Shown here: piece after piece, positions 17,562 to 38,302 of the stretch
Numbering within the stretch: the first letter of the stretch is position 1
Layout: each line of letters begins with the position of its first letter
Origin: Candidatus Kaiserbacteria bacterium
GTDB lineage: Bacteria; Patescibacteriota; Minisyncoccia; Phycocordibacterales; UBA918
Length of the DNA stretch: 64,000 nucleotides
Assembly (NCBI GenBank): GCA_031430855.1
Contig: JANPCG010000015.1
Span: 68,522 to 132,521 of the forward strand
Reading direction: 5' to 3'
Notes under the pieces: generated by a model
What the model saw: the letters and a program-made list of their open reading frames with translations, nothing else
What the model was told of the DNA's origin: nothing
The model's database searches: none
Made by a program: the position numbers and the translations under genes

Positions 17562-17734
17562 TGTCACTTCGCAAGACCTTGCCTGCTCTTTTGGAAAAAG
17601 AGCGACAAGGTGTACCGCTTCTGTAAGAAGTAGCGACTATTGCGAACTTTGTTCCCGATTTGTCCTCCTAAGGCTAAAACGTGATTTAATATCACGTTTT
17701 AAAACCATTTGAGATATTTTGAATTAATGAAAAA
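17544..17734 (+). repeat. Structured repeat element, copy 3 (long form: hairpin1 GAAGTGAC-taat-GTCACTTC, hairpin2, hairpin3, then hairpin4 TTAAAACGTGAT-t-ATCACGTTTTAA and a conserved ATTTGAGATATTTTGAA tail)
   Basis: About 85% identical to copy 4 over about 190 nt. The ABC-F stop codon sits in the hairpin1 loop. Confidence 0.65.
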
Positions 17735-17868
17735 TATCCAAATGGTGTACTGCTCCTGTAAGGAGAAGCGCTGGAGCGTATACTCCAATACTTTTGAATA
17801 CATACGTTATTTCCGTATTTTGCACCCTTGGTCCTTGAACTGGTATACTAGGGCACGTCATTTGCTGT

Positions 17869-18894
17869 ATGAAAAATATTATCTTTGGAATCCTTCTTCT
17901 TGGCATCGTCGCTGCTTGTGGGGGTGGCGCGTATTATTTTGCCACGCAGTATTCTTTTTCCCCTTCTTTGTCTCCTGCTTCATCAGCAGAATCTAGTCAA
18001 CCACCTGCTTCAACTGGCCCCGCAACTGGCCTGGTTTTTGCAAAGCGTACGTTTGTCGTTCCGCCAACAGGAAGTACTACGACAGAGCTCCTCTATGTTG
18101 CTGCTACCAGTATCAGGGATTACCCTATGGGACGCTATACCACAGAGGACGGTCGAGCCGCTACTCTCATGGCCTACGAGGACTACGTGTCATCGTTTGA
18201 AAATAATCTCCGCGTAATTCCCATTTCTATAAATATTGGAAACGCCGGTGAGCAGTTCTACCTAGCCCTTCTCGAAGGAGAAGAGATGAAACATACGAAC
18301 TCATTCTACATAGGCGAACAAATTAGACTTCAGTCGATAACCCGATTAGGCAATCAAGTTACCGTAAATTACTTTGTACACGACCGCGATCAAACATTTG
18401 CTGAGCGACCGCGAGTTAATACCACGGCGATATACGATCTTGTTGAAAAAAAGATTGTTCAGGCTGGGCGGACACCTAAAACAGAAGCGGTTGTTGTTAT
18501 GAAAGATTTTAAGGGTAAGTATTTGTGGGTAAAAACAGTACCAAAAGATGGCGATGAGGTGACACCCAATCAACCAGATAAATTCGGTGTACTCTTTAAT
18601 ACCAATCAAATTGAAATTCAAACAGACTGTAATTTAGGAAACGCGAGCTTCAGTGCCGAAGCTGGTTCGTCTACGGTATTTACCCTGGGTGAGATTGCGG
18701 CCACCAAAATGTTCTGTGAGAGTGCACAAGAAACGATTTATTTTGATATGTTTAAACAAGTTGACCGTTATGAAGAAGCAGAAAATGGTGATCTCACACT
18801 CTACTTCCGTGACGATGCTGGATATATGGAATTTGTCCCAGCCGGCAAAACACTTGAGTTTGAGGCAACTTCAACCACCGCCACGTCTTCGTAA
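17869..18894 (+). CDS. Lipoprotein with C-terminal META (HslJ-like, DUF306) domain
   Basis: Lipobox LLLGIVAAC. The C-terminus TDCNLGNASFS...ATKMFCESAQETIYFDMFKQVDRYEE matches the META-domain pattern. Confidence 0.55.
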   Translation: MKNIIFGILLLGIVAACGGGAYYFATQYSFSPSLSPASSAESSQPPASTGPATGLVFAKRTFVVPPTGSTTTELLYVAATSIRDYPMGRYTTEDGRAATLMAYEDYVSSFENNLRVIPISINIGNAGEQFYLALLEGEEMKHTNSFYIGEQIRLQSITRLGNQVTVNYFVHDRDQTFAERPRVNTTAIYDLVEKKIVQAGRTPKTEAVVVMKDFKGKYLWVKTVPKDGDEVTPNQPDKFGVLFNTNQIEIQTDCNLGNASFSAEAGSSTVFTLGEIAATKMFCESAQETIYFDMFKQVDRYEEAENGDLTLYFRDDAGYMEFVPAGKTLEFEATSTTATSS

Positions 18895-18909
18895 ATTGAG
18901 TACATATAA

Positions 18910-18948
18910 AGAAGCCGGCAAGTTGTCCTTGCCGGCTTTGTGTTTGTA
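18910..18948. terminator. Bidirectional terminator between the convergent META lipoprotein gene and nadV
   Basis: AAGCCGGCAAG-ttgtc-CTTGCCGGCTT flanked by A-rich and T-rich runs. Confidence 0.55.
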
Positions 18949-18957
18949 TTGGCTCTG

Positions 18958-20352
18958 TCACAACTGAGCACGCTCTCTGATGGTCGCAAACGAGTCGTCG
19001 ACCAGCAGTTCGCCGTTCTGGTAGATCGGCCGCATCACCACATCGTCTTGGTTGAGGGTGGATGCGTAGTCCTCGGATACCGTACGGTATCCGCATGAGC
19101 CGATTCCACACTGGTAGACGAGGGCGAGACGGCCGCGCTTGCTGGCTTTGCGGTGGTCGGAAATTGGGTCTTTGTAGACTTCCCTCCAAACCCCGTTCTG
19201 CTTTACGGCGCTCGCCTTCATTGCGAATTGCATGGTGTCCCGGTCAACTTTCTGCAGCAGACCAGCACCCATACCAAACGCAATGTTGTCAGTCGAGATC
19301 ATTTCTGCCTCGAGGTTCGCGAGGATGGTCTCGAGAGATGCCAGGTTGATTCCGTCACCCTGAATCACTCGTACACACGAGGGAAGTACATGATACCCCT
19401 TCGAGTTCGTGGTGGAGCCAAAGGTTTTCATGAGGCGTTTGATCACCTCAATCGGCATCGTTGTGGGATCGCCCGAGTCTGGACGAATCACCAACGTACC
19501 CCCCATCGACATCACTTCCGACCGTAGTTCGCCGCCCCATAGCACGTCGACGGCATGGTAAATGTCGTAGCTGTCAGAGACGACGGCAACGAGTTTTCCT
19601 GCTCCCCCAAACTGGGAGAGCATGTTGCGGTAGGCATCGACCTCACTCTCCTTTCCCCAGGCGGTGATAGTAGAGTGTTCGGCTGCCGGGATTGAGAATC
19701 CCGGCATGTCTGCCTGGTAGTACCGGCGCGCTGTCATGAGACCCGAAATCGTATCGGTCCCCATGAAGTTCACCAGGTGTGCCATGCCGCCTAGGCCTGC
19801 CGCTTCTTCGCTCGTTGCACCACGCGCGCCAAAGTCGTGGAGCTTGAACGCAATCTGTCCATCTGGATCGTCCGAAGAGCGAACCAGGGAGGCGTAGATC
19901 AGTTCCTTCGCTTTCCGCGAGAGGCTGGCCACCGTGGTCGGGTACCAGATCGCCCGCAGGTAGCTCGTTTCAAGGTACGAGGTGAGCCAGGGGAGTTCCG
20001 GGTCGGTGTTCACTACTTGTGAGAGAACGTTCCGAGTCGGAATGACCGCCCCTTCCGGCGCCGCTTCGATGGTGACCGGAAGAAAGCCGCCGTACTTCTT
20101 GATGATGCGGTCGACGCCGGCCACGTTTGGTTCGAAGCCGTGAGCGCGCGCAATCATTTCCCACTCATCCCGGTCACCATTGGTGATAGGGGTGAGTAAG
20201 TTTTTCTTGATCCACGCTTGTGGTCCGAGAAAGACCGCGTTGTCGAAGGGTCCACCACGGGCTTCGATGTACGAAGACACGTGGGTGGTTCCGGGCGGGT
20301 ACTGACGAAAGTGCGACAGTTTGTAGCTGTCGACATCAAGTAAGATAGACAT
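18958..20352 (-). CDS. nadV: Nicotinamide phosphoribosyltransferase (NAMPT/NadV)
   Basis: N-terminal MSILLDVDSYKLSH (NAMPT DSYK motif). Size and the rest of the sequence fit NAPRTase-family type II PRTases. The start is taken at ATG 20352, 2 nt after the nadM stop; the ORF extends to 20451. Confidence 0.8.
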   Translation of the reverse strand: MSILLDVDSYKLSHFRQYPPGTTHVSSYIEARGGPFDNAVFLGPQAWIKKNLLTPITNGDRDEWEMIARAHGFEPNVAGVDRIIKKYGGFLPVTIEAAPEGAVIPTRNVLSQVVNTDPELPWLTSYLETSYLRAIWYPTTVASLSRKAKELIYASLVRSSDDPDGQIAFKLHDFGARGATSEEAAGLGGMAHLVNFMGTDTISGLMTARRYYQADMPGFSIPAAEHSTITAWGKESEVDAYRNMLSQFGGAGKLVAVVSDSYDIYHAVDVLWGGELRSEVMSMGGTLVIRPDSGDPTTMPIEVIKRLMKTFGSTTNSKGYHVLPSCVRVIQGDGINLASLETILANLEAEMISTDNIAFGMGAGLLQKVDRDTMQFAMKASAVKQNGVWREVYKDPISDHRKASKRGRLALVYQCGIGSCGYRTVSEDYASTLNQDDVVMRPIYQNGELLVDDSFATIRERAQL

Positions 20353-20354
20353 GA

Positions 20355-21275
20355 TCAGGTTCCTTTCATTGTCCTGAGATACATGAGTAACATTTCGCCG
20401 AGCGGTTGATGCGATGTTATCAAGCGCTCGGAGAGTTCGTTTACGGGACACCAGTAGATGGCGTCAATGTCATCACTTGCCGACGCTTGGCCCCAGGTGT
20501 GCGTGAGCACAAAGAGGTCAGTCATCACTTCATCTGGTTCGTCGCGGTATCTGAAGTCACGGATGCGCCGTGATCCCACGAGAATCGGATTGTCGACCTT
20601 GATGGCGCCCAGTTCCTCGGTCGCTTCACGGATTGCTGCCGCCCCCCGAGATTCGTCTGTCGGATCAACGAAGCCACCAATGAAACGCCATCGGCCGCCA
20701 TCTTCACGTTTCTGTCCGAGCCAGACATGTGTTCGTCCACCGTCCATCACCGCCATATCGACGGTTGAGAAGACGATGGGAAAACGAGTCATCGACGCCG
20801 CAATAAAGCCACGTCTGTAGTCACGACCAGGTGGGTAGTGTCCCGCCAGGTGTTCAGCCTTGATCTGGTTTCGGATTGTCGTTCCCGATGGAGCATCGAC
20901 CGGATCGATAACGCGAACGGGAAAGATGCCAGAATAGTAACCAGCAAAACCATCCCGCGATGCGTAGAGGGTAACCGACTCATTCGGGAAATAGGTCCGA
21001 ATGAGTTGGTCGAGACTTTTGCTCCATTTCGCGTCAGACGGTTGGTCGTGCAAAGTAACGACTCGCGTGACGGTAGGAATTTCTTCCTGGACCATCGCTA
21101 CCCGGATATCTCCGGGCAAGGGGTGAACCGGTCCGGGGATTTTCACCCGATCGCCGATTACGACCAAACTGTGATCATTTTCTGATTGCATGGTAGCAAT
21201 CAAGTGACGGTGTCCGGCATGTAGGGTGTCAACCTGCAGCCGGGCAACGACAACGCCAACGGTAGAAGTTTTCAT
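20355..21275 (-). CDS. nadM: Bifunctional NMN adenylyltransferase / Nudix hydrolase (NadM-Nudix)
   Basis: N-terminal GVVVARLQVDTLHAGHRHLI carries the nucleotidyltransferase (H/T)xGH motif. C-terminal REATEELG is the Nudix box. AGGAG SD upstream. Confidence 0.75.
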   Translation of the reverse strand: MKTSTVGVVVARLQVDTLHAGHRHLIATMQSENDHSLVVIGDRVKIPGPVHPLPGDIRVAMVQEEIPTVTRVVTLHDQPSDAKWSKSLDQLIRTYFPNESVTLYASRDGFAGYYSGIFPVRVIDPVDAPSGTTIRNQIKAEHLAGHYPPGRDYRRGFIAASMTRFPIVFSTVDMAVMDGGRTHVWLGQKREDGGRWRFIGGFVDPTDESRGAAAIREATEELGAIKVDNPILVGSRRIRDFRYRDEPDEVMTDLFVLTHTWGQASASDDIDAIYWCPVNELSERLITSHQPLGEMLLMYLRTMKGT

Positions 21276-21318
21276 AGAGGTTTCTCCTAATTGTGAGTGT
21301 CAAAGAACCGAAAGATGC

Positions 21319-21343
21319 AGTTAGTGTTAATATAACACTAACT
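21319..21343. promoter_or_regulatory. Perfect 11-bp-arm palindrome AGTTAGTGTTA-ata-TAACACTAACT in the nadM-nadV promoter region
   Basis: Visible directly in the sequence. A second related palindrome lies 76 nt downstream (21419-21450). Candidate NrtR-type operator. Confidence 0.3.
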
Positions 21344-21418
21344 AAAGACAGAACGTATGGCGCACACGGTGTGCACCAGCCCCTGTCCGTATCTATCTAT
21401 GAACAAGGATAGCAAATC

Positions 21419-21450
21419 AGTTAGTTATTGTCAAATATACAATAACTAAG
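21419..21450. promoter_or_regulatory. Second palindrome AGTTAGTTATTGT-caaatat-ACAATAACTAA upstream of nadM
   Basis: Its arms share AGTTAGT with the first palindrome. Confidence 0.3.
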
Positions 21451-21511: not shown

Positions 21512-23569
21512 TCACTTTTTTCGTTGTAAGATTCGAGCGATTATGAGAGACGCTACAAAGATACCGAAGGAGAGCAAAAGAAAAGTAGTATTGACGGCCT
21601 CTGTACTAAAACCATGTTCAGAAATCTCAGTCACACTCAAAGAGGCTCCGACCGCAACAAAGGTCGTAATCCCCAGGATTGAACCTACAATGGTGGCAAT
21701 TATGTACGGCATAAATGGGATACGCAAAAACCCCGCTCCGTAATTAACTCCGTCGTACGGCAGGAAGAGAAGCCTCATGGTAAGAATGGTCATAAATGGT
21801 TTCGTGCGACAGGCACTACTAAATCGGCCAAAGAGTGATGAAGATGATTGGGGTGAAGGGTTACTAAAATATCGACCAATGGCGTACGCGAGTGTAGCCG
21901 AGAGATTCGCTCCGATGAGGGTGTAGAAGACACCTCCCCATAAGCCAAAAAATACACCGGAAAGGACAGTGAGAATGGTTCCTGGAATAAATGTTATTGG
22001 ACGAAGGGTATAGGCGATAATATATAGTACGGGTCCCCAAGCAGTTTTAGTAATGAGGTCAAAAAGCTTGATTGCGAGTTCGGTTACCGTGAGTCCTGTC
22101 CGCGCTTGATACGAAAATACCGCAATAATAAGCCCGACCCAGACACTTAATACGATGAGTTTCGGTAAAAATCGTTTCAGTATATTGCGACAATCGGTAC
22201 GGAGACTTTTAACTTGGGCAGCAAAGAAATAATCACCAGCTTTTTTTATAAGCAGACTATAGGTAGGGTACGCAAACATCGTTCGACGGAGTTTCCATAA
22301 TGAAAGGTTATGTTCCATCGCGACGGTAAAAACGGCGAGGAGTTCACCCGCCTGTGGGCCAGCCGTATGGACACCCAAAATTTTTCCTGAGAAACGCCGT
22401 GCAATTACGACTACTATTCCTTTGGTGGCACTGTCGGTTCGAGCACGGTCATTTACACTCAAGGGTACTTCAATTCGGTGGATGCGCTCACTGCCGTAGA
22501 GAGTAATTGCTTCAGTTTCCGATAGTCCAATCTGCGCGAGTTCAGGGTCGGTGTAGGTTACTTTGGGTACGTGTTTAGTTTTAATGCGAGTTAGTCCCTT
22601 GGTTGCGATCCGAGCAACAACTTGTCGTGCGATATCATCGGCTTGATGGGTAAATTTAAATCTATCCGCACAATCACCAAGTGCATATATATGATGGTTA
22701 CGAGTTTGGTAATTATGATTAACCGAAATTCCAAATTCAGTCGAAGTAACGTTAGCTACTTCAAGTCCCGTCGGAAGATTAGGAATTCTACCAATCGCAA
22801 CGAGAACTTTATCAAAGGGGACGCCTATAACTTCTCCCCCGGACCCTGTTTCAATAGTGGCAGTTTTAGACCCAACTGAGGCGAGGTGAGCTTCTCCAAT
22901 AAAAGTAATTCCGAGTGTATCAAAATGATGTTGAATGACTGAGGCAACACTCAAGTCCTCTAATTTTCCGAGTGTGAGTCCGCTATCGACAATCGTTACC
23001 TGACTTCCTAAGAGGGCTAACGCTTGCCCCATTTCGAGACCAATTGGTCCAGCTCCAATGATGAGTGTTCGCTTCGGTATATCTTCGAGTGTAAAAAGAT
23101 TTTGGTTAGTAAGGATGTCTGAGTCGTTAAGTCCGGGCACCTCAATTTGTCGAGGTCGTGAACCGGTTGCAATTATGGCGGTATTAAATCGATATGATGT
23201 TCCATTAACCGAAAGAGTTTGTTTACCGGTAAAGATAGCCTCTCCCATAATGACGGTAATACCCTTAGCCAAAAAGGCAGCGGGATTTTCTTCTTGTGAA
23301 AATTCATTAACGACGTTGCGAACGTATGAAAACGCCCCCCGTCTGAAATCTTCTGTGTGGCCATTTATACCGGAGATTGAGATGGCGGTTGCGTAGGTTT
23401 TGGCGTGGTGGAGGAGCGCCTTGCTTGGAATACAGCCCGAATGTGTACATTCACCTCCGATGTGTTCACGTTCAATTAACAGAACAGATTTACCGATGTT
23501 TCGCAGTCCAACTGCGGCGGTGAGTCCACCTGATCCCGCTCCAACTACGATGACGTCAAAATGTTGCAT
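21512..23569 (-). CDS. Fusion protein: class I FAD-dependent pyridine nucleotide-disulfide oxidoreductase (N-terminal) + DedA/TVP38 membrane domain (C-terminal)
   Basis: N-terminus MQHFDVIVVGAGSGG...GGECTHSGCIPSK has a FAD Rossmann fold and a CxxxxC redox disulfide. The C-terminal ~230 aa is multi-TM with ...RPITFIPGTILTVLSGVFFG..., typical of DedA/SNARE-associated proteins. Confidence 0.75.
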   Translation of the reverse strand: MQHFDVIVVGAGSGGLTAAVGLRNIGKSVLLIEREHIGGECTHSGCIPSKALLHHAKTYATAISISGINGHTEDFRRGAFSYVRNVVNEFSQEENPAAFLAKGITVIMGEAIFTGKQTLSVNGTSYRFNTAIIATGSRPRQIEVPGLNDSDILTNQNLFTLEDIPKRTLIIGAGPIGLEMGQALALLGSQVTIVDSGLTLGKLEDLSVASVIQHHFDTLGITFIGEAHLASVGSKTATIETGSGGEVIGVPFDKVLVAIGRIPNLPTGLEVANVTSTEFGISVNHNYQTRNHHIYALGDCADRFKFTHQADDIARQVVARIATKGLTRIKTKHVPKVTYTDPELAQIGLSETEAITLYGSERIHRIEVPLSVNDRARTDSATKGIVVVIARRFSGKILGVHTAGPQAGELLAVFTVAMEHNLSLWKLRRTMFAYPTYSLLIKKAGDYFFAAQVKSLRTDCRNILKRFLPKLIVLSVWVGLIIAVFSYQARTGLTVTELAIKLFDLITKTAWGPVLYIIAYTLRPITFIPGTILTVLSGVFFGLWGGVFYTLIGANLSATLAYAIGRYFSNPSPQSSSSLFGRFSSACRTKPFMTILTMRLLFLPYDGVNYGAGFLRIPFMPYIIATIVGSILGITTFVAVGASLSVTEISEHGFSTEAVNTTFLLLSFGIFVASLIIARILQRKK

Positions 23570-24000: not shown

Positions 24001-26172
24001 ATGGCTCGAGAATTTCCGATTAATCGCATGCGTAATTTCGGTATTGTGGCGCACGTTGACGCTGGTAAAACCACGACGTCTGAACGAGTTCTTTTTTATA
24101 CCGGAATGTCCCACAAAATTGGTGAAGTACACGATGGTGCTACGGTAACTGACTGGATGGAACAAGAGCGAGAACGTGGTATTACGATTACCGCGGCGGC
24201 GATTTCCTGTAACTGGTCTAAATCTGAAGTGGTGGACCGTAAAGATCGGTCGCAGATGTACAACTTTAACATCATTGACACTCCCGGCCACATTGACTTT
24301 ACGGCTGAAGTAAAGCGTTCAATGCGTGTACTTGATGGAGCGGTCGTCGTGTTTGACTCAGTAGCTGGGGTAGAGCCACAATCTGAAACGAACTGGGGTT
24401 ATGCTGACGAGGCTGGGGTGCCACGTATTTGTTTTGTAAATAAAATGGACCGCCTGGGAGCCGACTTTGAAAAGTCGTATGCCAGTATCCTTGACCGACT
24501 CTCAAAGAAAGCGGTTCGAATCCAACTACCGTGGGGTGCTGAGGATCAGCTCAAAGGAGTCATTGATTTGATTAAGATGAAGGCCTTTGTGTTTGAAGGT
24601 GAAATGGGGATGACTGTTCGAGAAGTAGAGATCCCTGCCGAACTACAAGCTGATGCCGAAAAATACCGCGCAGAGCTTATTGAGCGTGTAGTAGAGCATG
24701 ACGACGCGATGATGGAGGCCTTCCTCGAAGGTAATTTGCCAACCGATGCTGACCTCAAAGCAACGTTGCGTAAGGCGGTCTTGGGTAACCAGCTCTTCCC
24801 GGTGATGACGGGTTCAGCCCTCAAAAATATTGGGGTACAGCTCGTGCTCGATGCGGTGGTTGATTACCTACCAGCTCCGACTGATTTGCCACCAGTTCGT
24901 GGAATTAATCCAAAAGATGATTCAGAAGTCACCCGTACGGCGAGCGATGAAGAACCGTTCTGTTCACTCGCGTTTAAGTTGCAGACTGACCCATTTGTTG
25001 GACAGCTGACCTTCTTCCGGGTTTACTCAGGTGTGGTAAAAGCCGGAAGTTATATTTATAACTCAACCACAGGTGAACGTGAACGACTCGGGCGAATTGT
25101 ACGACTCCAAGCTGACAAGCGAACTGAAATCGAAGAGGTATACGCGGGAGAAATTGCTGCCGGAGTAGGACTCAAAGACGTGAAGACATCGCATACACTC
25201 TGTGATGAAGCAAAGCCAATCATTCTCGAACAAATTGTCTTCCCAATGCCCGTGGTAGCAATGCGCGTTGAACCTAAAACTAAAAACGACCAAGAAAAGA
25301 TGGGGACTGCACTCCGTAAACTGGCAGATGAAGATCCAACCTTTATCGTATCGTCAGATGCTGAAACAATGGAAACAATTATCGCGGGTATGGGAGAACT
25401 CCACTTGGAAATTCTTGTTGACCGTATGAAGCGTGAGTTTGGAGTTGAGGCAAACGTGGGTGCTCCTCAGGTAGCCTACCGCGAGACGATTCAGCGCGCA
25501 GCCGAAGCCGAATACAAGTACGTCAAACAATCAGGAGGTAAGGGTCAGTACGGTCACGTTAAGATCCGCATCAAGCCACTTGAAGCGCTTGATCCAGAAG
25601 CGAAGGTTGCAAAAAATGTCACTCGTGAAGATCATTTTGAGTTCGTCAACAGTATTAAGGGAGGGGTAATTCCACAGGAATTCATCCCAGCCGTTATGAA
25701 GGGTGCCAAAGAAGCAATGGCCCGCGGTCAAGTTGCTGGCTACAAAATGGAAGATGTTTCTGTCGAGTTGTACGATGGTAGTTACCATGATGTTGACTCT
25801 TCGGAAATTGCCTTTAAACTAGCCTCTATTTATGCCTTCCGTGAAGCAGCGAAGAAGGCGAGTGCCGTGCTCTTGGAGCCAGTCATGAAGATTGAAATTC
25901 GTACCCCTGAGCAGTTCATGGGCGATGTCAACGGAAATATTTCAAGTAAGCGTGGACAGGTAGAAAGTATGGGTGAATTAGGTGACAAAAAAGTGGTTAC
26001 AGCATCGGTACCGCTTTCAGAGATGTTCGGGTACACGAATACCCTGCGCTCAATGACCCAAGGTCGGGCGAGTATGACGATGACCTTTGACCACTACGAT
26101 GTTGTACCGCCAAACGTATCATTGGAGATTCGTAAGGCAAGAGGCGTCAAAGACATAGAAACCGAAGAATAA
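24001..26172 (+). CDS. fusA: Elongation factor G
   Basis: NFGIVAHVDAGKTTTSERVL...DWMEQERERGITI...DTPGHIDFT and full-length EF-G domains (723 aa). Confidence 0.95.
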   Translation: MAREFPINRMRNFGIVAHVDAGKTTTSERVLFYTGMSHKIGEVHDGATVTDWMEQERERGITITAAAISCNWSKSEVVDRKDRSQMYNFNIIDTPGHIDFTAEVKRSMRVLDGAVVVFDSVAGVEPQSETNWGYADEAGVPRICFVNKMDRLGADFEKSYASILDRLSKKAVRIQLPWGAEDQLKGVIDLIKMKAFVFEGEMGMTVREVEIPAELQADAEKYRAELIERVVEHDDAMMEAFLEGNLPTDADLKATLRKAVLGNQLFPVMTGSALKNIGVQLVLDAVVDYLPAPTDLPPVRGINPKDDSEVTRTASDEEPFCSLAFKLQTDPFVGQLTFFRVYSGVVKAGSYIYNSTTGERERLGRIVRLQADKRTEIEEVYAGEIAAGVGLKDVKTSHTLCDEAKPIILEQIVFPMPVVAMRVEPKTKNDQEKMGTALRKLADEDPTFIVSSDAETMETIIAGMGELHLEILVDRMKREFGVEANVGAPQVAYRETIQRAAEAEYKYVKQSGGKGQYGHVKIRIKPLEALDPEAKVAKNVTREDHFEFVNSIKGGVIPQEFIPAVMKGAKEAMARGQVAGYKMEDVSVELYDGSYHDVDSSEIAFKLASIYAFREAAKKASAVLLEPVMKIEIRTPEQFMGDVNGNISSKRGQVESMGELGDKKVVTASVPLSEMFGYTNTLRSMTQGRASMTMTFDHYDVVPPNVSLEIRKARGVKDIETEE

Positions 26173-26234
26173 TTAATAAAAAAGCACCCCTTCGGGGGTG
26201 CTTTTTTATTAATTATTCTTCGTATGTCTTTGAC
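26146..26234. repeat. Long (~40 bp arm) inverted repeat spanning the fusA stop codon and centred on the terminator hairpin
   Basis: GTCAAAGACATA(gaaac)CGAAGAATAATTAATAAAAAAGCACCCC-ttcg-GGGGTGCTTTTTTATTAATTATTCTTCGTATGTCTTTGAC. Confidence 0.6.
26178..26208 (+). terminator. Rho-independent terminator after fusA
   Basis: AAAAAAGCACCCC-ttcg-GGGGTGCTTTTTT. Confidence 0.85.
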
Positions 26235-37365: not shown

Positions 37366-37440
37366 AACACAAAACACCCCCATCTGGGGGTGTTTTGTGT
37401 TTGGGTACAACTATCAGGGGTGAATATATACCGCGGTATA
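37366..37440 (+). repeat. Direct repeat unit A (terminator AAAACACCCCC-atct-GGGGGTGTTTT + GTGTTTGGGTACAACTATCAGGGGTGAATATATACCGCGGTATA leader)
   Basis: About 95% identical to 38228-38302. It contains the rplB terminator and a TTGGGT-N18-TATATA promoter-like leader for P2. Confidence 0.7.
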
Positions 37441-38219: not shown

Positions 38220-38227
38220 ATTTGTAA

Positions 38228-38302
38228 ACACAAAACACCCCCTATATGGGGGTGTTTTGTGTTTGGGTACAACTATCAAGGGTGAATATATACCGCGGTA
38301 TA
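38228..38302 (+). repeat. Direct repeat unit B (second copy of terminator + leader)
   Basis: See unit A. It marks a tandem duplication of the terminator/leader plus a family gene. Confidence 0.7.

Follow-up and report, generated by a model that had tools for sequence, protein, structure and literature searches.

The nadM–nadV operon of a Candidatus Kaiserbacteria bacterium lies on the minus strand of a 64,000-nucleotide (nt) stretch of contig JANPCG010000015.1 (hereafter the window, meaning the whole stretch of DNA that was analysed). It pairs the gene of a fused nicotinamide mononucleotide (NMN) adenylyltransferase–Nudix protein with that of a nicotinamide phosphoribosyltransferase, and two related palindromes resembling the binding sites of NrtR repressors precede it. 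The features on which the analysis turns are as follows.

18958 to 20352, minus strand: nadV, encoding nicotinamide phosphoribosyltransferase (464 amino acids; Pfam NAMPT_N and NAPRTase)
20355 to 21275, minus strand: nadM-Nudix, encoding a predicted fusion of NMN adenylyltransferase and a Nudix domain of the ADP-ribose pyrophosphatase type (306 amino acids)
21319 to 21343, no strand: proposed proximal NrtR-type operator O1, AGTTAGTGT-taatata-ACACTAACT, centre at 21331
21423 to 21447, no strand: proposed distal NrtR-type operator O2, AGTTATTGT-caaatat-ACAATAACT, centre at 21435

On the minus strand nadM precedes nadV, and only 2 nt separate the TGA stop of nadM from the ATG of nadV. NadV scores 575 bits on the NCBIfam model PRK09198 against a cut-off of 405, carries a DSYK motif at residues 8–11, and is 68–76% identical to the NadV proteins of relatives. 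The single Pfam match of NadM is NUDIX (PF00293, 3e-13) at residues 172–285, where the Nudix box is intact (GFVDPTDESRGAAAIREATEELG, pattern E-x7-REATEELG). Two nucleotidyltransferase motifs lie further upstream in the protein, HAGH at residues 19–22 (HxGH) and SGTTIR at 130–135 (SGTxxR, ISSTxxR type). Across 21 homologues, G21, H22, G131, T132 and R135 are invariant, and H19 is invariant or nearly so. Searched against the PDB as a single sequence, NadM reaches at best E = 6e-4; a family profile built from the 21 homologues aligns over its full length with 2QJT (1.6e-18, positions 4–296) and 2QJO (8.9e-9) and also matches archaeal NMN adenylyltransferase (NMNAT) structures. At 50 bits against 449, NadM comes nowhere near the equivalog cut-offs of NCBIfam and is thus a divergent member of its family. 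The solved NadM-Nudix enzymes of Francisella tularensis (2QJT, 2R5W) and Synechocystis (slr0787, 2QJO) share its domain order, NMNAT then Nudix; compared with these, the protein of the window is very divergent and 35–45 residues shorter, with the HxGH, SGTxxR and Nudix-box motifs present. The nadM product thus appears to be a divergent bifunctional NadM-Nudix enzyme with predicted NMNAT and ADP-ribose pyrophosphatase activities, and the two genes together are predicted to specify the salvage II route from nicotinamide (Nam) through NMN to NAD. An earlier reading made from the sequence only had proposed these gene identities, the DSYK motif and the tight 2-nt coupling, all of which agree with the domain, profile and coordinate evidence; the complete nicotinamide-to-NAD route that it claimed follows from the gene identities.

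O1 is a palindrome with perfect 11-bp arms around a 3-nt centre, while the paired arms of O2 reach from 21421 to 21449 (TTAGTTATTGT / ACAATAACTAA) around a centre of 7 nt. The bounds first given for O1 are exact, whereas those given for O2 included two extra left-hand bases that are unpaired. Aligned on their centres, both palindromes are copies of one 25-bp motif, AGTTA[G/T]TGT-N7-ACA[C/A]TAACT, with equal spacing, a closer relation than had been stated before. The two centres are 104 bp apart, and O1 and O2 lie 44–68 and 148–172 nt upstream of the nadM ATG, respectively; the O2 palindrome lies 63 nt past the stop codon of the upstream gene. A weight matrix built solely from the sites of relatives, with the window's own sites left out, scores O1 at 25.9 bits and O2 at 27.6 bits. 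It finds no further site of at least 12 bits in the 64-kb window, and 20 shuffled versions of that sequence score 19.3 at most. Pattern searches return no additional copy of the motif in the window, nor in 20 kb of its flanks as read in a near-identical relative. The palindromes are therefore neither a generic repeat, in accord with the sequence-only reading, nor a product of chance.

NrtR operators are palindromes of about 21 bp, most of which share a conserved GT-N7-AC core (PMC2330246). Both O1 and O2 contain this core, each being centred on TGT-N7-ACA with symmetric flanks. In three relatives whose NadM is about 60% identical (L003, L004 and L006), tandem copies of this motif precede nadM, and the motif also lies upstream of pnuC; each relative encodes an NrtR (Nudix plus WHD_NrtR) 3–5 kb away. 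Our survey covered 74 nadM loci from metagenomes, each with 300 bp or more of sequence before nadM, and counted as a box any site scoring 18 bits or higher in the 300 bp nearest to the gene. Of the 28 loci bearing nrtR, 21 have a box and 7 do not, and none of the 46 loci without nrtR has one (Fisher p = 7.8e-13); conversely, nrtR is found on the same locus in 21 of 21 surveyed loci with boxes. The association extends beyond this group. We scanned the genomes of 185,579 species, one genome each, for the exact pattern and obtained at least 120 loci, the window's own genome not being among the matches listed. Among these listed matches, at least 11 have nrtR inside the 8-kb locus, and in at least nine of those the site lies no more than 200 bp from nrtR; the nrtR-linked matches listed come from Chloroflexota, Bacteroidota, Acidobacteriota and Gammaproteobacteria. 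A search with the L003 NrtR, itself a match to the NCBIfam model "ADPR responsive transcriptional repressor", yields 7183 homologues at E ≤ 1e-30; the best 120 of the 7183 are 60–71% identical to it and include several named Parcubacteria lineages, so that NrtR is widespread in this group.

The assignment to NrtR-type sites, which the sequence-only reading had supposed, thus stands on the core and on four independent comparative tests (close relatives, nadM loci, other phyla and NrtR abundance). We consider it likely that O1 and O2 are tandem operators of an NrtR-family repressor that controls nadM–nadV, the regulator acting in trans. The system belongs to a known type of NrtR regulon, and its lone unusual trait is that no repressor gene neighbours it. 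NadR was also considered as the repressor and rejected, its operator being an 18-bp TGTTTA-N6-TAAACA that differs in both sequence and spacing (PMC2330246).

A single sigma-70-like promoter is predicted in the intergenic region upstream of nadM.

21406 to 21434, minus strand: predicted sigma-70-type promoter, with TTGACA at 21434–21429, a 17-nt spacer and TGcTATCCT (-10 at 21411–21406)

It matches the consensus hexamers at 10 of 12 positions, has a TG before the -10, and would start transcription near 21399, placing the centre of O1 at about +68. The -35 hexamer lies inside the distal box, and O2 would therefore occlude the promoter. The layout is equal in L006 (TTGACA-17-TGCTACAAT, with the distal box at the -35); in L003 and L004 the distal box instead overlaps a -10-like hexamer, TATACT (all three read by eye). 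In the mechanism that we propose, a repressor dimer on the distal site would cover the -35 and block RNA polymerase, and a dimer on the proximal site, about 68 nt past the predicted start, would provide a second block. The two sites may cooperate, their centres being separated by 104 bp or about 10 helical turns. This phasing argument is weak, however, because box spacing varies from 38 to 180 bp in other loci. By analogy with characterised NrtR proteins, the repressor would be released by ADP-ribose, the by-product formed as NAD is consumed. Derepression would turn on NadV, converting Nam to NMN, the NadM adenylyltransferase, converting NMN to NAD, and the Nudix domain, removing ADP-ribose. 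Such an arrangement of an ADP-ribose-sensing NrtR, two operators and an overlapped promoter would give NAD salvage a concrete regulatory logic in an uncultured lineage with a reduced genome.

The nearest characterised counterpart is the regulon of NrtR (Slr1690) in Synechocystis sp. PCC 6803 (Rodionov et al. 2008, PMC2330246), which has the same target operon, nadM-Nudix followed by nadV, and likewise a palindromic GT-N7-AC operator. In electrophoretic mobility shift assays (EMSA), the Synechocystis protein binds upstream of nadM–nadV and ADP-ribose releases it (PMC2330246), and the same logic of an ADP-ribose-released repressor would be expected in the window. The host of the window belongs to a different phylum (Patescibacteria/Parcubacteria, to which the names on homologues also point), and its operon differs in having two proposed operators 104 bp apart rather than one reported site, in its longer arms (AGTTAkTGT) and in the lack of a nearby nrtR. 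Two tandem sites are likewise found in Shewanella oneidensis (NrtR SO1979) before a salvage operon that contains nadV, and both were functional there by EMSA (PMC2330246). In that case, however, nrtR adjoins its target, the operon is prs–nadV rather than nadM–nadV, and the consensus is that of another NrtR subgroup.

Between the predicted promoter and nadM, the leader holds three further elements.

21358 to 21378, minus strand: G+C-rich hairpin with a 9-bp stem, in the predicted 5′ untranslated region between the two operators
21298 to 21308, minus strand: conserved leader element GTTCTTTGACA, 23–33 nt before the nadM ATG
21284 to 21288, minus strand: Shine-Dalgarno (SD) sequence AGGAG, 8 nt before the nadM ATG, read from the sequence

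To obtain a conservation footprint, the nadM upstream region was aligned with relatives at 97%, 87% and 79% NadM identity, and invariant columns were counted in four non-redundant sequences. Upstream of the distal box, 7 of 64 columns are invariant; the distal box itself is invariant throughout (25/25). The spacer between the -35 and the -10 retains 2 of 8 columns, the extended -10 (TGCTATCCT) 8 of 9, and the interval from there to the G+C hairpin 3 of 24. The hairpin keeps 15 of 22. In the proximal box, 13 of 18 arm columns and 1 of 7 centre columns are invariant, followed by 1 of 10 between this box and GTTCTTTGACA, and 10 of 11 in GTTCTTTGACA. One relative (L221) shows a symmetric G/C swap in the proximal box, where AGTTAGTGT...ACACTAACT becomes ACTTAGTGT...ACACTAAGT. 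Kept arms around a variable centre are the footprint expected of a dimeric DNA-binding protein, and because both boxes appear to be under strong purifying selection, the cognate factor is presumably present in this genome.

Several observations nevertheless weigh against control by NrtR, most of them concerning the whereabouts of the repressor. No nrtR is detected by tblastn in the 64-kb window, consistent with the earlier remark that no separate regulator gene is present there, or in 21 kb of the 97% relative (L001), and none lies within 10 kb past either window edge as read in a near-identical relative. Wherever else boxes precede nadM, the locus also holds nrtR, and the clade of the window is the exception. 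Both places where synteny would put the gene are empty. In the syntenic relatives L003, L213 and L216, nrtR directly adjoins an ABC-F gene; in the window, the ABC-F-adjacent slot (17562–18957) has no nrtR and holds a META-domain lipoprotein gene (341 amino acids, with a lipoprotein-like signal sequence), after which nadV follows. In L222, nrtR sits between PGK and HIT, whereas PGK directly abuts HIT in the species of the window (L210, 2285–2332). The L001 relative has three substitutions in one arm of the proximal box, which could reflect relaxed constraint on that site. Finally, once transcribed as part of the predicted leader, the proximal palindrome would itself fold into an RNA hairpin (-10.9 kcal/mol), and symmetric covariation alone cannot separate a protein-binding site from an RNA stem. 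Since no nrtR lies in the roughly 84 kb examined and both syntenic slots are empty, the repressor probably acts in trans, from elsewhere in the genome. Four NrtR candidates that were looked up all come from other assemblies. Some related genomes carry a stand-alone nrtR far from known NAD genes.

The same gaps could mean that NrtR has been lost from the lineage and that the boxes are orphans, either recent relics or sequences kept for a second role in the promoter (the distal box holds the -35, the proximal box a TGnTATATT-like stretch), with the operon expressed constitutively. The two empty slots and the absence of nrtR from the 64-kb window and from about 20 kb of flanks in the near-identical relative would fit such a loss, as would the degraded arm of the proximal box in L001, and the overlap of the distal box with the -35 means that promoter function could account for part of its conservation. 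It would not account for the left arm of the distal box, which is invariant although it has no known promoter role. Relics, moreover, would have decayed at the divergence in question and are therefore disfavoured: the proximal arms are kept while the centre varies, and this pattern, like the invariance of the distal left arm, extends to relatives with as little as 79% NadM identity, a distance at which neutral spacers have become scrambled. The roughly 84 kb examined are, at a guess, about one-tenth of a genome of this kind, and related genomes do place a stand-alone nrtR at a distance from known NAD genes. We therefore regard orphan operators as unlikely.

There is a slim chance that the whole genome is without NrtR, as the two empty slots would allow, and that strong purifying selection nonetheless still acts on the boxes and on the other leader elements (the G+C hairpin, the invariant GTTCTTTGACA ahead of the SD and, in relatives, a long hairpin with an anti-SD-like CCACCTC), which would then be read by a not-yet-described factor. 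Such a factor may be another DNA-binding protein that took over the NrtR boxes, or a riboswitch-like RNA control of NAD salvage superimposed on the operators.

The palindromes might instead act mainly as RNA, either as leader hairpins or as a terminator of the upstream gene, and together with the G+C hairpin and GTTCTTTGACA control stability, attenuation or translation. For the predicted leader of 125 nt, the folding energy is -41.1 kcal/mol (z = -4.7), and the structure includes the proximal palindrome and a weak helix sequestering the SD; the leader elements are conserved, and the distal palindrome is placed 63 nt past the stop of the upstream gene. The folding z-score, however, is largely a trivial outcome of the palindromes. 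With the promoter placed as predicted, transcription of nadM would begin past the distal palindrome and leave it out of the transcript. A terminator role is rejected in any case: the arms contain just two or three G or C per 11 positions, giving A+T-rich stems with no U tract, and a terminator scan flags neither palindrome, whereas the ordinary terminators of the window have G+C-rich cores between runs of A and T. Nor does an RNA role explain why the motif stands beside nrtR in many genomes and in varied transcriptional contexts, including between convergent genes, or its strict co-occurrence with nrtR. Rfam returns no match at the gathering threshold in the window, and the leaders of the window and of L004 give only chance-level hits at E ≤ 10, so known RNA families, NAD+ riboswitches among them, are rejected at both the gathering and the permissive threshold. 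We hold it to be very improbable that the palindromes work primarily as RNA.

The other leader elements leave room, at low probability, for additional RNA-level control alongside the proposed NrtR operators. GTTCTTTGACA is present in most NrtR-linked nadM leaders and pairs weakly with the SD, and is possibly a weak anti-SD partner. It was also considered as the -35 of a second promoter and rejected: the relatives read by eye have no -10-like hexamer 16–18 nt downstream, and the resulting start would fall at or beyond the ATG. The G+C hairpin has a predicted energy of -13.5 kcal/mol, with a z-score of only -1.3; L219 carries a structure-preserving change from U·G to U-A in it, and L003, L004 and L006 have non-homologous small hairpins at the same position. 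An overlapping, terminator-like alternative fold is flagged at 21368–21354. A long hairpin that is absent from the clade of the window occupies the interval between the proximal box and GTTCTTTGACA in L003 (9905–9975), L004 (9905–9970) and L006 (4815–4890), and also in L128 and L129. With a 3′ arm, CCACCTC(C), similar to the anti-SD of 16S rRNA and a 5′ arm similar to an SD, it looks like a translational switch.

The sequence-only reading had put forward the Nudix domain of NadM itself as the protein that binds the palindromes and autoregulates the operon, for which we see next to no chance. In its favour stand the absence of any other visible regulator in the window and the kinship of the NadM Nudix domain with the effector domain of NrtR (PMC2330246), which is evident in the match of the NadM profile to the NrtR-family structure 2FML. 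That alignment is confined to the Nudix residues 168–289. The Nudix-like domain of NrtR is its effector sensor, and DNA is contacted not by that domain but by a winged helix at the C-terminus (PMC2330246). The 306 residues of NadM are fully taken up by the NMNAT and Nudix domains, with no winged-helix or other DNA-binding domain: Pfam gives NUDIX alone, the winged-helix family WHD_NrtR (PF21906) is not matched, and pairwise comparison with the L003 NrtR finds no similarity (E = 2.7). NadM, having no winged-helix domain, is thus not the repressor, and its catalytically intact Nudix box is what would be expected of an enzyme. The distribution of the boxes leads to the same result, since they are absent from 46 of 46 nadM loci without nrtR and so follow NrtR rather than NadM. 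Taking the Nudix enzyme domain for the repressor is a tempting inference that these data correct.

The operon stands out from its surroundings in base composition. Its G+C content is 54–57%, compared with 44.7% for the window, and the G+C content at third codon positions is 0.57 and 0.69 in the two genes versus 0.29–0.45 in neighbouring genes, including that of EF-Tu. nadM–nadV is thus compositionally foreign. The same contrast is seen in L001, L003, L004 and L006, including relatives that are 58–76% identical. In these relatives, pnuC and a nadR-kinase-like gene are also G+C-rich, and nrtR is host-like in composition. Because the flanking genes vary between relatives while the leader architecture is kept, the cassette seems to move with its operators, which suggests transfer of the genes together with the operator-bearing leader among Patescibacteria.

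The pair is also known from phages. Homologues of NadV turn up in 2014 phage records, a small number of jumbo phages have NadM-like genes, and large phages carry a pair of nadV and NMNAT-Nudix that specifies the same two-gene route. The cassette of the window differs from the phage pair in lying in cellular DNA, as the genes for EF-G, EF-Tu and ribosomal proteins attest, and in carrying host-type NrtR operators. The phage origin raised in the sequence-only reading is not upheld, at least as a recent event: NadV is at best 58% identical to its phage counterparts (in Roseobacter-group phages) and NadM at best 37% (in jumbo phages), below the 68–76% and 58–62% found with Patescibacteria relatives.

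Downstream, the operon is closed by a terminator that it has in common with the convergent META-domain lipoprotein gene.

18911 to 18939, both strands: bidirectional intrinsic terminator serving nadV and that lipoprotein gene, its stem of 11–12 pairs (7 of them G-C) enclosing a loop of 5 nt, with a T-rich tail on either strand

Some NrtR boxes in relatives occupy other positions. In L004 (12358–12382) and L006 (7282–7306), nadV and the nadR-kinase/pnuC operon converge on a box that stands between their ends, an unusual location for an operator; the same convergent-end box recurs in L127–L129 at about +2370 from the nadM start. In L222 and L226 (4884–5044), a stand-alone nrtR is directly followed by three boxes, which in turn precede two unannotated genes (284 and 304 amino acids) that may be unknown members of the regulon. 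A phosphoribosyltransferase–Nudix fusion of 323–332 amino acids adjoins nrtR in L003 (14322–15320) and L213 (2292–3263), in the latter beside prs.

Elsewhere in the window, the minus strand at 21512–23569 encodes a 685-amino-acid fusion of a pyridine nucleotide-disulphide oxidoreductase (Pyr_redox_2 plus dimerisation domain) with a C-terminal VTT/DedA membrane domain, which is conserved in L001 and L003. Just past the EF-G gene, at 26163–26222, stands the longest inverted repeat of the window, which pairs perfectly over arms of 28 nt and probably serves as a terminator in both directions. Hairpins of a similar ACAAAACACCCCC/GGGGGTGTTTTGT kind are found at 37366–37401 and 38226–38264.

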